Origin: an uncultured bacterium
Lineage (GTDB): Bacteria > Krumholzibacteriota > Krumholzibacteriia > LZORAL124-64-63
DNA: 64,000 bases
Direction: 5' to 3'
Assembly (NCBI GenBank): GCA_963727525.1
Contig: CAVSGO010000006.1
Location: 128,001-192,000, forward strand
In this document: positions 56,237-60,642 of the stretch, piece by piece
Layout of the letters: each line of letters begins with the position of its first letter
How positions within the stretch are numbered: the first letter of the stretch is position 1
Program-made: the position numbers and the translations under genes
The notes under the pieces: model-generated
What the model was told of the DNA's origin: nothing
Databases searched by the model: none
What the model saw: only the letters and a program-made list of their open reading frames with translations

Positions 56237-57613
56237 TCAGCGTCCGAAGCCGGCCGTCTGCACCCCGTCCAGGGGAGCGGGGTCGGCACGCAGCGAGATG
56301 ATGTAGTCGGCGAGCGCGGACTTCTCCTCCGCGGTGCCCGGCACCGGCGGCATGAAGGGGCGCGCGTTCTGGATGCCATCGAGATAGGTGACCAGGGCGG
56401 CGTGGTCCCAGCCTTGCCAGCCGTACATCGCGCCGAACTTCTGCACGATACTGTTCACGCCGTGAGTGGTGTGGCAGCGGCTGCACGCGAGGCGGAACAT
56501 CTCGCGGCCGGCCATGAGTGTATTGTCGTCGGTGACGTCGTGCACCACGGCGTAGGAGGCGTGGGCCAGCAGGCCGTCTTCCGCGTAGAGCGGGTAGTCC
56601 TGGGCGCGCAGCCCGTTGCTGTACATGTAGGCCTGGACGACCTCGGGCTTGCGGATGAACTCGCGCACGCGCTCGAAGTAGCTGAGCTGCCACACCGCGA
56701 AAAGCACCGGCACGATCATCGCCACAGCAGGCAGGCGGCGTGGCGCCAGCAAACCCCACACGGCGACCAGCACGACCACGCCCACCGAGACCGCGATGAC
56801 GACGCGTAGCGGATCGTAGAGCTGCTGGAAGTTCAACGTCGTAAGGGCCACGGGGAGGTTGGCGTGCATGCGTTCGGGGATGACCTTCCAGTACGACCAC
56901 GCGCCCACCAGCCACGCCGGGCTGAAGGCCAGGGCCCAACCGCTGATCGCGCGCACGGCGCGACCGCGGAACTCACTGCCGCGCTCGGTGAAGAGCACCG
57001 TCAGGAAGAGGGCGAACATGGCGGCCGTCACCAGAGCCAGTGGTGTGCGGAAGAAGAGCTGCGGTAGGTAGACGGGGTTGAGCGCCGCGGTCCAGAAGCC
57101 TGGATTCACCGTCCACACGCCGGTGTCCATCTGGAAGCTGAGGATGGCCACGATCACGGCCATGGTCAGCCAGGAGGCGACGCTCAGCGCCACGCCCAGC
57201 CCGAGGTGCGCCTTCTTGTGCGCCTTCGCCCACATCGTCTTCCACGACAGCATGTAGATCAGGATGAGGGCCACCTCGGTCACGAAGACCGTCCACTCGA
57301 AGAACCACGCCCAGAAAAAGACGCGGATCAGGGAGCCTATGGCGTTGGGGTTCACGAGGCTGGTCGACAGCCAGATGCCCACGCCCGTGAGCGCGCCCAG
57401 GCTGGTGGTGACGATGAACGCCACGAACAGGATGCGATACGCCAGGCGGTCCCACTGCTCGTCGCGAGTGCGGATGCCCAGCCACTCCAGATACGTCACC
57501 AGCGGCGCCAGCCCCACGGCCAGCATGTGGTTGATGATCACGTGGAGGGAGGCGATCACCGCGATCAGCAGGCGGTTGCCGAAGAAGTCGAGGTGAAAGA
57601 CCGGGAAATCCAT
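56237..57613 (-). CDS. Cytochrome bd subunit I (CydA)-like protein with C-terminal c-type heme
   Basis: HVIINH, GALTGVG, WFFEW.VF.TE and REFIRKP; CSRCH...FMPP. Confidence 0.82.
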   Translation of the reverse strand: MDFPVFHLDFFGNRLLIAVIASLHVIINHMLAVGLAPLVTYLEWLGIRTRDEQWDRLAYRILFVAFIVTTSLGALTGVGIWLSTSLVNPNAIGSLIRVFFWAWFFEWTVFVTEVALILIYMLSWKTMWAKAHKKAHLGLGVALSVASWLTMAVIVAILSFQMDTGVWTVNPGFWTAALNPVYLPQLFFRTPLALVTAAMFALFLTVLFTERGSEFRGRAVRAISGWALAFSPAWLVGAWSYWKVIPERMHANLPVALTTLNFQQLYDPLRVVIAVSVGVVVLVAVWGLLAPRRLPAVAMIVPVLFAVWQLSYFERVREFIRKPEVVQAYMYSNGLRAQDYPLYAEDGLLAHASYAVVHDVTDDNTLMAGREMFRLACSRCHTTHGVNSIVQKFGAMYGWQGWDHAALVTYLDGIQNARPFMPPVPGTAEEKSALADYIISLRADPAPLDGVQTAGFGR

Positions 57614-57810
57614 GACGGGCATCCTCTTCGGTTGCATGCGCGGGCCAGGTGCGCGCGGCGGGGGCCTTCACGCCGCGTTCCTCGCATATCCGCGTGGCCC
57701 ACGCCGGAAACCCCACCGGAATCGTGTGAGTTAAGTCTTTCTCGAAGAAGAAGTTACGCGACGCGGCATGGTAATGGCAAGGCGGGACACACGCCAGCAC
57801 GCGATAGCCT

Positions 57811-57836
57811 GGAACACACCGGGGTGGCGTCCGTAA
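57811..57836 (+). promoter_or_regulatory. Putative ECF-sigma promoter
   Basis: GGAAC-N16-CGTAA upstream of ATG 57918. Confidence 0.55.
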
Positions 57837-57917
57837 GGACCGGGTTCGATCTTGGGTACGACGCGTAGCGCCGACCGTCCCGGCCGGCGCGCCTTCCCAC
57901 GATGGAGGTCGTTTTCG

Positions 57918-59105
57918 ATGCGCAAGTTCTCCCTCACGTTCCTCGTCGGCCTGGTCGCGGTCCTGGCACTCGCGGCCGGAACGGCGCACGCCCTGCCGGC
58001 GGCGCCGATCATCGCCCAGAGCTGGGACGAGGCGGTGGCGTTGTCTCAGCAGCACGGTTCGCCGATCGTCATCGACTTCTATACCGACTGGTGACCGAGC
58101 TGCAAGGTCTTCGCCCGTGAGGTGGAGGAGAATCAGCAGCTTCGCGGCTATCTGGCCGGGATCGTGCTCTTCAAGAACAACTGCGAGAAGGGTGCGGGCA
58201 TCGATGTCGCCAAGAAATACGAAGTGCACGTATACCCGACCTTCGCCATGGTCGACGCCAGCGGCGAGGTGACCGATCGCTGGGCCGGCTACCAGGGCGC
58301 CGACGGCTTCATCGCCACCGTGGACGCGGCCCAGGCCGACCCCCGGACGATCAAGGAGAAGGTGGCGGCGTTCGACGAGGAACCGACGGTGGCGCTGTCG
58401 CGCTCGCTGGGACAGTACAGCGAGGCGGTGGGTGCGAACACCGACGCCATCAAGTACTACCGCAAGGCGATGGTCCTTGACTCAACGCTCGCCAAGGAGA
58501 TGCGCAGCCAGGTCTTCATGGCCGCGTTCTATGGGTTGCGTTCGGGTGAGGTGACGGGCGATCAGCTCATGGCCGTGGGCCACGAGATCATGGATGCGCC
58601 CGGGAGCGATGCGAACGACTATCTCATGGTCGCCAGTATCGCCAAGCGCGTGGCGTCGGCCAACGACTACGTGCCGATCCTGCAGAAGGCCCTGACCGCC
58701 ACGGCGAATTCCGACGATCCGGAGATGGCGGAGTACCGGCAGGATCTCCTCGTCGACGAGGCTCTCCTGATCAAGAACGACAAGGACGAGGCCCTGCGTC
58801 TCAAGCGGGATACGCTCACCGACACGTGGCGCAACGATCCCGATGAGATCAACAGCTTCGCCTGGTGGTGCTACGAGAACGACCTCAACCTGACCGAGGC
58901 CTACGACCTCGCCATGCGCGGCGCCGATCTGGCCGCCGACGACGGCACCCGGGCCAACATCCTCGACACGGCGGCCTACATCGCCTTCAAGAAGGGCGAC
59001 CAGGCCAAGGCTATCGAGCTGGAGACACGCGCCGTGAAGTTGGCTCCCGATCGCCAGGGTCTGCAGCGCACGCTGGAGAAGTTCAAGAGCGGGGAGGCCG
59101 GCTGA
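57918..59105 (+). CDS. Exported thioredoxin-family (UxxC) TPR protein, candidate selenoprotein, 395 aa with Sec at residue 59
   Basis: GGAGG RBS; signal peptide; IDFYTDW-TGA(58092-58094)-PSCK is in frame with the downstream ORF carrying the YPT cis-Pro loop and TPR-like helices. Confidence 0.88.
58097..58142 (+). other. Candidate bacterial SECIS element
   Basis: Upper stem TCTTCGCC/GGTGGAGG with loop CGTGA; lower stem GAGCTGC/GCAGCTT; directly 3' of the UGA. Confidence 0.6.
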
Positions 59106-59130
59106 GACTTCCCGAGACGCCCGTATCGAT

Positions 59131-59172
59131 GCAAGCGGCCGTGGATCTCTGGATCCGCGGCCGCTTGCTTTT
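59131..59172 (+). terminator. Rho-independent terminator
   Basis: GCAAGCGGCCGTGGATC-TCTG-GATCCGCGGCCGCTTGC followed by TTTT. Confidence 0.85.
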
Positions 59173-59210
59173 CGTCGCGGTCTTGCGGGACGTCGCCGTT
59201 TCGTGTACCG

Positions 59211-59226
59211 TACCAACCGGTAGGTA
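59211..59226. promoter_or_regulatory. Putative TetR operator palindrome
   Basis: TACCAACCGGTAGGTA (7 of 8 pairs symmetric) abutting the TetR ATG; TTGCGG-N17-TACCGT promoter-like hexamers at 59183-59211. Confidence 0.65.
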
Positions 59227-59876
59227 TGGAAATGCAGGTACAGCGAACACAACACGAATCCAAGCGCAAGCTCCTCGACGCCGCCCTCCGCGTGATCCGT
59301 ACGAAGGGCTACGAGGCGGCGACGGTGGAGGATATCTGCCGGGAGGCGGGGCTGACGAAGGGCAGCTTCTTTCACCATTTCAAGGGGAAGGAAGACCTGG
59401 CCGTGGCGGCGGCGGAGTACTTCGCCACCATGGCCGACGGGCTCTTCGCCGACGCGCCGTACCGGCATCTCGAGGATCCGGTCGAGAGGGTGCTCGGGTA
59501 TGTCGATTTCCGCCGCGCGATCCTGCGCGGTGCGTTGCCCGAGTTCACGTGTCTGCTGGGGACGATGGTCCAGGAGACGTACGCGACCCACCCGGCCATC
59601 CGCGAGGCCTGCGACACGCACATCAGCGCGCACGCGGCCGACGTCGCCCGCGATCTCGCGGCGGCACAGGCGCGCGTGCCTTCTTCCCGGGCGAGCTGGA
59701 ACCCGGAGGATCTCGGCCTCTTCACGCAGGCCGTGATCCAGGGCGCCTTCGTGCTCGCCAAGGCCCGGGGCGGCCCCGAGGTCGCCGACGCGTGCCTCGC
59801 GCACCTGCGGCGGTATCTCGAGCTGCTCCTCGATCGCCCATTCCCAGCCGCGAAGGACGACGACCATGACGGATAG
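59226..59876 (+). CDS. TetR family regulator (NemR-like)
   Basis: KGYEAATVEDIC.EAGLTKGSFFHHFKGKE HTH; CLLG..QE; QGAFVLAK. Confidence 0.92.
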   Translation: MEMQVQRTQHESKRKLLDAALRVIRTKGYEAATVEDICREAGLTKGSFFHHFKGKEDLAVAAAEYFATMADGLFADAPYRHLEDPVERVLGYVDFRRAILRGALPEFTCLLGTMVQETYATHPAIREACDTHISAHAADVARDLAAAQARVPSSRASWNPEDLGLFTQAVIQGAFVLAKARGGPEVADACLAHLRRYLELLLDRPFPAAKDDDHDG

Positions 59877-60642
59877 ACAGCACCCCTTTTGCTGGTACGA
59901 GCTGACCACGCCGGACGCCACGGCGGCCGCGCGATTCTACGGCGACGTGTTCGGGTGGACGGCGCGCGATGCCGGCAACCCCGCGATGCCATACACCCTG
60001 CTCGCCTCCGGAGGTCGCGACATCGGCGGCATCTATCAGTTCCCGGACGATCCGAGCTGCGCCGGCATGAAGCCGGGCTGGCTCGGCTACATCGCCGGCG
60101 ATGTCGAGACCGACGTACCGCGCGTGCAAGCGGCGGGCGGCACGGTGCACAAGGCGTGCACGGACATTCCCGGCGTAGGCCGCTTCGCGATCGTCGGCGA
60201 TCCGCACGGCGCGGCGTTCGTGATCTTCACGCCTGACCCGATGCCGGGCGACATGCCCGAACCCGTGCCGGCCACCACGCCGGGCCACGTGGGCTGGCAC
60301 GAGTTGCACGCCGGCAACGGCCTCGAGGCCTGGGAGTTCTACTCGGGGCTCTTCGGCTGGACGGGACGGGACGGGCTCGATATGGGACCAGCCGGCGTCT
60401 ACCGGATCTTCGCGATCGACGGCGTGGACCGGGGCGGCGTGATGACGAAGATGCCGGAGATGCCCGCGCCGAGCTGGCTCTACTACGTCACTGTGGCGGG
60501 CATCGACGCGGCGATCGCTCGCGTGAGGGCTGCCGGCGGCACGATCATCAACGGACCGCACCAGGTTCCCGACGGCCCATGGATCGCCCAGGGTGCGGAT
60601 CCTCTGGGTGGGATGTTCGCGATGATGTCGGAAGCCCGCTGA
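59866..60642 (+). CDS. VOC family protein (two-domain glyoxalase-like)
   Basis: WYEL.T.D...A..FY..VFGW duplicated; DP.G..F. Confidence 0.92.
   Translation: MTDRQHPFCWYELTTPDATAAARFYGDVFGWTARDAGNPAMPYTLLASGGRDIGGIYQFPDDPSCAGMKPGWLGYIAGDVETDVPRVQAAGGTVHKACTDIPGVGRFAIVGDPHGAAFVIFTPDPMPGDMPEPVPATTPGHVGWHELHAGNGLEAWEFYSGLFGWTGRDGLDMGPAGVYRIFAIDGVDRGGVMTKMPEMPAPSWLYYVTVAGIDAAIARVRAAGGTIINGPHQVPDGPWIAQGADPLGGMFAMMSEAR

Follow-up and report, generated by a model that had tools for sequence, protein, structure and literature searches.

An in-frame TGA in a Krumholzibacteriota gene is predicted to encode the selenocysteine of an exported thioredoxin-fold protein with a TPR-like tail

We analyzed a 64,000-nucleotide stretch of DNA, here called the window, from an uncultured bacterium of the phylum Krumholzibacteriota (GenBank assembly GCA_963727525.1, contig CAVSGO010000006.1, positions 128,001 to 192,000 of the forward strand), and concentrated on a gene at 57918-59105 of the window (+ strand) whose reading frame is interrupted by a TGA codon. 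Sequence comparison indicates that this is very probably one gene for an exported selenoprotein of 395 residues, in which the UGA at codon 59 is read as selenocysteine (Sec, U). The specific redox role of the protein is less certain than the reading of its gene as that of a selenoprotein.

Read directly from the sequence, a single frame extends on the + strand from ATG 57918 to a TGA at 59103-59105 and contains one internal TGA, at 58092-58094, in the context TTC TAT ACC GAC TGG TGA CCG AGC TGC AAG (FYTDW-U-PSCK). Two open reading frames (ORFs) in a mechanically generated list, 57852-58094 and 58122-59105, share this frame and are separated only by that TGA. Translation from ATG 57918 with TGA read as U gives 395 residues with U at position 59, so that the complete gene comprises 395 codons, one of them the internal Sec codon, and a TGA stop. 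The gene uses TGA twice, inside (codon 59) and as its terminal stop, and has no other in-frame TGA. An initial annotation, made from the letters of this DNA and the ORF list, had described one frame split only by the TGA in FYTDW*PSCK, which the list and the translation bear out. Its remark that TGA otherwise serves as a normal stop agrees with the termination of this gene and with rpoB and rpoC, which contain no internal stops. The translation also confirms the length of the 395-residue product that it proposed, an exported Sec-containing thioredoxin; a leader, a thioredoxin (Trx) fold and a tail resembling tetratricopeptide repeats (TPRs), described below, support that interpretation.

The evidence that carries the Sec assignment is the behavior of the TGA column across relatives. 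A stop-tolerant search of 40 relatives returned full-length matches (32-43% identity), nearly all with exactly one in-frame TGA and three with none. When frames were taken from 20 loci, 19 had TGA at the first position of x-W-[TGA]-x-x-C and the remaining one (L032) had TGT there. Twenty further regions supplied 12 more TGA forms, all with TGA in the same column and including two tandem copies in one genome (G116), and nine more stop-free forms, every one with TGC or TGT at the Sec column. In total, the single alignment column held TGA in 31/31 Sec forms, which are 30-58% identical, and TGC or TGT in 10/10 Cys forms. Such a pattern is the classic Sec/Cys signature; neither a nonsense mutation private to this genome nor a read error can account for it. 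It was also the outcome foreseen by the initial annotation, which had placed Sec at the N-terminal attacking Cys of the motif and proposed looking for orthologues with TGA or TGY at this codon and conservation on both sides; all ten Cys forms carry their Cys codon in that column, and all 31 fetched Sec forms retain TGA. In an alignment of 22 homologues (A3), residues on both sides of the UGA were invariant (F54, U/C59, C62, F65, G94, and P107). The TGA at 58092-58094 thus marks the first position of U-P-S-C, and the TGC at 58101-58103 encodes the invariant Cys62, the predicted resolving Cys of the UxxC motif.

The 31 TGA forms and 10 stop-free forms in which the codon column was inspected are a subset of the matches found in a phylum-wide search of 208 Krumholzibacteriota genomes (E ≤ 1e-30). 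That search gave matches in 90 genomes, and at least one in-frame TGA was present in 82 of 95 rows (hand count, with the window's own genome, G000, included). The 13 TGA-free rows consisted of three partial matches that do not reach codon 59, nine from one family (f6), and one paralogue of 26% identity. By family, matches were found in 71/90 genomes of f1, 4/7 of f2, 5/12 of f5, and 9/10 of f6, the same four families over which the 31 TGA-column orthologues are spread; at this threshold there was no match in f3 (0/43), f4 (0/23), f7 (0/8), f8 (0/1), or f9 (0/13). Mapped onto a quick maximum-likelihood tree, the Sec/Cys state changed five times by parsimony and at least twice when judged by well-supported branches, and the Cys form P0004 was nested in a 100%-supported clade with the window's protein.

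Individual relatives showed further variation at this locus. A Sec form and a Cys form coexist in one genome, G034 (C1:288611-289756 and C1:144361-145431). In locus L139 (G116:C14:58976-62032), the two tandem copies lie head to tail, each with TGA at the redox column and with the hairpin described next. The orthologue at L022 (G003:C441) has a second in-frame TGA (GYETAAE-U-VKTV) in a column that is mostly Trp elsewhere, for which a TGG-to-TGA error, a polymorphism, or decay of this copy could account.

Downstream of the UGA, the 31 Sec forms align without gaps (alignment A1) and share a hairpin resembling a selenocysteine insertion sequence (SECIS), with the consensus (N)UUCGCC-CGUGN-GG(U/C)G(A/G)(A/G)(N). 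In the window it occupies 58109-58127, with stem arms at 58109-58115 and 58121-58127 and the loop CGUGA at 58116-58120. RNAalifold on the 31 sequences returned this 7-bp helix as the sole consensus structure over both 72 nt and 135 nt, with no second conserved hairpin within 135 nt. Standard pairs filled 94.9% of the hairpin cells in A1, compared with 38-58% in slid controls, and changes on both sides occurred at 4/7 pairs, a result matched by 0/500 shuffles. These compensatory changes include C-G to U-A in L018, C-G to A-U together with an Ala-to-Asp change in L029, and G-C/G-U to A-U in L135. In the 10 Cys forms, the same columns were 34.3% paired, no better than shuffles, and encoded F-[DQKN]-x-D as opposed to the F-A-R of the Sec forms.

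The bacterial SECIS model, as given in the Figure 2 legend of PMC13188914, has a loop of 3-9 nt, a stem of 4-16 bp, a G in the first two loop positions, a spacing of 16-37 nt, and a minimum free energy (MFE) of at most -7.5. The conserved hairpin begins 16 nt past the UGA and falls within these published bounds, having a 5-nt loop (CGUGA) whose second position is G and third is U, a stem of 7-8 bp, and a UGA-to-loop distance of 21 nt. Across the 31 sequences its MFE ranged from -6.0 to -13.7 kcal/mol, with 26/31 at or below -7.5 and the window's own at -9.2. An Rfam scan of 57000-60000 (E ≤ 10) returned no SECIS family and four chance-level matches only. On this comparative evidence, the 7-8 bp hairpin with its CGUGA loop is likely the recoding signal.

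Read through the TGA, the protein resolves into a leader, a Trx domain, and an α-helical tail. Residues 1-25 (57918-57992) form a predicted signal peptide, with MRK, a hydrophobic core, and AHA before LP, where cleavage would occur; a hydrophobic N-terminal leader with a small-x-small site was present in 22/22 aligned homologues. Three Pfam thioredoxin models match residues 33-135 across the TGA (score/cut-off in bits: PF00085, 45.8/23.5; PF13098, 43.6/27; PF13899, 41.4/27). An AlphaFold2 model built on the 22-sequence alignment had a predicted local distance difference test (pLDDT) score of 93.3 and a predicted TM-score (pTM) of 0.84, with low pLDDT in the leader helix (residues 6-21). The model placed a Trx fold at residues 31-140, in agreement with a domain at residues ~30-140 (58005-58337) by Pfam, by model strands and helices, and by matches to thioredoxins and the DsbD C-terminal domain. 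U59 lies just before the helix formed by residues 60-71, and Pro107, the invariant Pro of a Y-P-T motif (58236-58238), stands before the strand 108-112 at the position of the thioredoxin-fold cis-proline, for which we predict a cis conformation. As expected of a Trx oxidoreductase, U59 and C62 are situated ahead of helix 60-71 and an invariant proline ahead of strand 108-112.

The tail comprises 13 helices in the model (residues 145-391), forming a predicted all-α, TPR-like superhelix (residues ~145-391; 58350-59090) that contains the conserved motifs FAWWC(Y/F)EN and LDTAA. Foldseek matched it to a consensus-TPR structure in the PDB (9qhc_B, E 4e-7, TMt 0.57), and a PDB profile search to consensus TPRs (CTPR, E 3.8e-42). 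All Pfam TPR models stayed below their cut-offs (best TPR_2, 21.8 versus 27 bits), and, as modeled, the domain is TPR-like by fold only. The initial annotation had assigned a ribosome-binding site, signal peptide, and first Trx strand to the part upstream of the TGA, and a YPT loop and TPR-like helices to the part downstream. Both assignments hold: GGAGG at 57904-57908, the leader helix, and a Trx fold split at the TGA are found for the former, and the invariant P107 and the 13 helices for the latter.

The family has further features of note. Cys318 (58869-58871) is near-invariant and lies in an aromatic motif that is strongly conserved, FAWWC(Y/F)EN (residues 314-321), with LDTAA following at 349-353; many orthologues also have a C-x7-C pair in 'EICxxxGxC' that is absent from the window's protein. 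Cys318 and these motifs may mark a second redox or binding site. The leader of P0004, which is the closest of the full-length Cys homologues, contains a lipobox-like L-G-C, and some family members may accordingly be lipoproteins and not soluble periplasmic proteins. In the close homologues P0022, P0028, P0041-P0043, and P0047-P0049 (489-523 residues as called), a chalcone-isomerase-like (CHI-like) domain (PF16036/PF16035) follows the TPR region, which suggests a three-domain variant, Trx(U)-TPR-CHI-like.

In public protein sets, the family is represented mainly by its downstream part. Of 60 homologues in a collection clustered at 90%, 58 were fragments starting past the Sec codon (284-340 residues, or 489-523 with the added C-terminal domain) and labelled either 'hypothetical protein' or 'TPR repeat protein'; the two full-length entries were P0004 (CSSC) and P0060 (CGPC). 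The expectation that standard pipelines would split this gene is thus realized, and the fragments arise because gene callers end the first ORF at the UGA and resume at a start codon further along, leaving databases with a 'TPR/hypothetical' fragment of roughly 310-340 residues. In a library of 50% representatives, 698 clusters matched the family profile (E ≤ 1e-30). Among the best 150 of these, 74 covered the redox column (72 CxxC, 1 SxxC, and 1 AxxC), and 76 began aligning at residues 64-118 of the window's protein and lacked the motif; by their alignment starts, these 76 fit Sec forms cut short. A full-length Cys form was found in Zixibacteria. A scan of public contigs used the pattern IDFYTDWC, which is biased towards Cys forms, and so gives no count of Sec forms outside the phylum.

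Genes of the Sec-insertion machinery are found in the window's genome, which is assembled in 8 contigs and 96.7% complete. A selA match scored 388.8 bits. The genome has one tRNA-Sec (70.4 bits; tRNA-SeC(tca) by ARAGORN), which is the only one of its 50 tRNAs with a UCA anticodon. selD (365 bits), outside the window at G000:C8:225636-226547 (- strand), has one in-frame TGA (FAKSAG-U-AAK) and is a selenoprotein itself, with U in the known G-U-A-A-K context. selB is present, also outside the window, at G000:C5:675700-677600 (locus L113:597-2508, minus strand), and its coding sequence is spread over three frames, one for the N-terminal part, one for a middle segment, and one for the C-terminal winged-helix part. 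The Sec machinery on which the initial annotation had made its proposal depend was therefore recovered with one reservation: selA, tRNA-Sec, and selD are clear and selB is there, but the assembled selB has two 1-nt frame breaks.

Several observations weigh against the proposal that UGA59 is decoded as Sec in an exported redox protein, and the state of selB is among them. Its two 1-nt frame shifts fall within ~220 nt of each other in the assembly, and rpoB and rpoC (~8 kb together) are unbroken and free of internal stops. In a frame-switch test based on third-codon-position GC content (GC3), ~13 of the genome's 28 G/C runs of at least 8 nt lay in a steady coding frame, without a switch; these results came from relaxed thresholds and were mixed, the test under strict thresholds being too sparse. 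With rpoB and rpoC intact and these runs steady, indel errors are evidently not everywhere in the assembly. This would suit a genome in which the selenoprotein family is real but selB is truly frameshifted after a very recent loss of the Sec trait, leaving UGA59 undecoded and only a 58-residue peptide made. We regard this as improbable, since selB is undecayed apart from two missing bases. The gene is collinear with the intact selB of five relatives (635-643 residues), with residues 1-460, 461-531, and 538-632 in frames -1, -3, and -2, and each change of frame corresponds to the loss of one base. With an unknown base inserted at L113:1120 and another in the C8 run at L113:904-911, the gene reads as a single frame of 637 residues, which aligns end to end (1-634/637) with the five relatives at 59-66% identity. 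In a contig from a public sequencing run (in X2; 216 nt, 2 mismatches in 212 nt), there is one more G behind L113:1120, and with it the first frame is restored. This contig contradicts the first break alone, however; the two public runs contain 5-6% of the selB words, and their reads span the first site and not the C8 run. The second break sits in that homopolymer, and selD, the gene at 57918-59105, and its hairpin all keep an intact UGA context. We are fairly confident that both breaks are local assembly errors. Other G/C runs of 8-9 nt coincide with a sharp GC3 frame switch (C7:1493044-1493051, C7:1873116-1873124, and C8:172422-172430 of G000); these three may reflect gene boundaries or additional single-base errors in the assembly.

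The remaining points against the proposal concern the hairpin, the neighborhood, and the assigned function. The window's own 75 nt after the UGA fold no better than shuffles (z -0.10), which is why the hairpin emerged only by comparison, and its 5' arm codes for the conserved F-A-R, so that part of its conservation may lie at the protein level. None of the window neighbors recurs beside orthologues, among which neither a conserved neighbor nor a redox partner was found. The signal peptide and the direction of the redox reaction are both things that we infer from sequence. The other ways of explaining the TGA fare worse. It is one substitution from TGC or TGT, and Cys forms exist, which is what a dead gene produced by nonsense mutation, or a sequencing error, would look like. 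The comparative data refute this, and we give it practically no weight: TGA stands in the same column in 31/31 orthologues from four families with full-length conservation downstream, and the co-conserved hairpin is confined to TGA forms. Sequence alone does not identify the inserted residue, and a suppressor tRNA or near-cognate read-through could in principle place Cys or Trp at codon 59. There is very little to recommend this, however, as the sole tRNA with a UCA anticodon is tRNA-Sec, TGA ends this gene and is absent from within rpoB and rpoC, and the position is that of the catalytic Cys of CxxC with a SECIS-type hairpin at canonical spacing. Public gene calls, 58 of the 60 being fragments, look as though there were two separate genes, one for a short secreted peptide and the other for an independent TPR protein of 327 residues with its start at GTG 58122. 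Such a division is scarcely credible: it would cut the Trx fold between strand 1 and helix 1, the 76 shortened representatives begin at scattered residues, as arbitrary restart codons predict, and the alignments of the other 74 run on unbroken, with CxxC in 72.

Given a selenoprotein, its closest known kin can be sought by fold, motif, and architecture. The family belongs with the UxxC Trx-fold oxidoreductases, which are already known, and has a canonical SECIS. According to a 2026 inventory, no class of bacterial selenoprotein is predicted more often than that of the Trx-fold proteins with UxxC. By description, the window's protein shares with them the Trx fold, Sec first in UxxC, Cys homologues, and a SECIS at canonical spacing, and differs in having, in addition, a signal peptide and a TPR-like domain of 250 residues at the C-terminus. 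That the nearest relatives of the Trx fold are the DsbD C-terminal domain and 'putative disulphide isomerases' of the FCB group is strongly supported. Foldseek matched the Trx domain to DsbD-gamma (TMt 0.62-0.66, 24-28% identity) and also to thioredoxins, and a PDB profile search returned the 'putative disulphide-isomerase' 2kuc_A (E 2.4e-24) and the DsbD C-terminal domain (~5e-17). DsbD-gamma (PDB 2fwf, 1uc7, and 4ip6) and the Bacteroidota-type 2kuc, the closest solved relatives of the Trx domain, are extracytoplasmic thiol-disulfide oxidoreductases; unlike the window's protein, they have CxxC instead of UxxC and no TPR tail. The best NCBIfam matches were the DsbD C-terminal region (NF001419; 49.4 versus a cut-off of 330) and TsoB (26.7 versus 805). 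Only profile positions 464-572 of NF001419 were matched, and the window's protein lacks the DsbD membrane domain. The Trx-like selenoproteins seleno_TsoB (NF045694) and Trx7/PDZ (NF041199) likewise have a DsbD-gamma-type domain, but the window's protein is far below the cut-off of the former and without a match to the latter at E ≤ 0.01; the family of the window's protein is covered by no NCBIfam model.

CnoX is a cytoplasmic protein that acts as a holdase. CnoX/YbbN of E. coli (3qou, a 'chaperedoxin') and the Salmonella protein 3qdn share with the window's protein the order of an N-terminal Trx domain and then a TPR domain, and Foldseek aligned them with the whole chain over ~352 columns (E 1.1e-6 and 3.1e-6, respectively). 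The domains are arranged differently, as indicated by a TM-score of 0.23-0.32 and a root-mean-square deviation of ~21 Å, and the window's protein has a longer TPR part, a signal peptide, and UxxC. YbbN was not among its best 60 PDB profile matches. Defined by cytoplasmic location and sequence family, the CnoX/YbbN group does not include this protein, whose homologues carry a leader in 22/22 cases. In the literature, the terms TPR, tetratricopeptide, and Krumholzibacter are absent from the main text of the 2026 selenoprotein review and of the BSepDB paper. Full-text literature searches found no paper joining selenoprotein, tetratricopeptide, thioredoxin, and UxxC, and nothing related for Krumholzibacteri with selenocysteine.

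Taken with the fold and motif, an exported selenoprotein would be expected to work as follows. SelB carrying Sec-tRNA(Sec) would bind the CGUGA hairpin, allowing UGA59 to be decoded as Sec. The signal peptide would take the protein across the inner membrane, with cleavage probably after AHA at residue 25. That Sec59 and Cys62 form a U-x-x-C redox centre at the start of Trx helix 1 is strongly supported. Fold, motif, and leader suggest a thiol-disulfide oxidoreductase, most likely a reductase or isomerase, with Sec59 as the attacking nucleophile that would form a selenenylsulfide with Cys62. A membrane conduit of the DsbD/CcdA type might carry out re-reduction; two DsbD_TM genes in the genome, neither adjacent to the gene at 57918-59105, could supply electrons. 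The groove of the C-terminal TPR-like superhelix may dock a substrate, client, or partner protein. A bolder suggestion, to which we attach a low probability, is that the protein is an extracytoplasmic, selenium-dependent counterpart of the CnoX chaperedoxins, in which the TPR superhelix, bearing Cys318 and the FAWWC(Y/F)EN and LDTAA motifs, would hold unfolded or oxidized envelope proteins and Sec59 would form and resolve mixed selenenylsulfides with them.

The remaining features of the locus lie around the gene. The Shine-Dalgarno-like GGAGG is situated 9 nt 5' of ATG 57918. An intrinsic-terminator-like hairpin (59131-59168; 17 pairs, 12 of them G-C) followed by TTTTCG, together spanning 59131-59174 (+ strand), lies 3' of the stop at 59103-59105, and because this terminator-like structure is strong, the gene looks monocistronic. 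Its neighbors in the window are a cytochrome-c-fused membrane protein, a TetR regulator, and a glyoxalase. The first is encoded by the divergent upstream gene at 56237-57637 (- strand), a 466-residue polytopic membrane protein with a C-terminal cytochrome c domain (PF13442). An Amidohydro_3 gene lies upstream in 5/19 relatives, and the other relatives' neighbors are diverse.

No principle of Sec decoding is changed by this family. Its exported two-domain architecture would extend the selenoprotein inventory of 2026, which lists 119 families and does not name this one. Since public protein sets systematically divide the gene at the codon of its active site, the catalytic domain is invisible to function prediction. 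If the chaperedoxin suggestion were true, Krumholzibacteriota, other FCB-group phyla, and soil phyla would possess a dedicated periplasmic protein-rescue system that is listed in no selenoprotein inventory. The family is large and, within Krumholzibacteriota, dominated by Sec forms, and its natural Sec/Cys pairs and compact, canonical SECIS make it a convenient system for studying what an extracytoplasmic thioredoxin gains from Sec.

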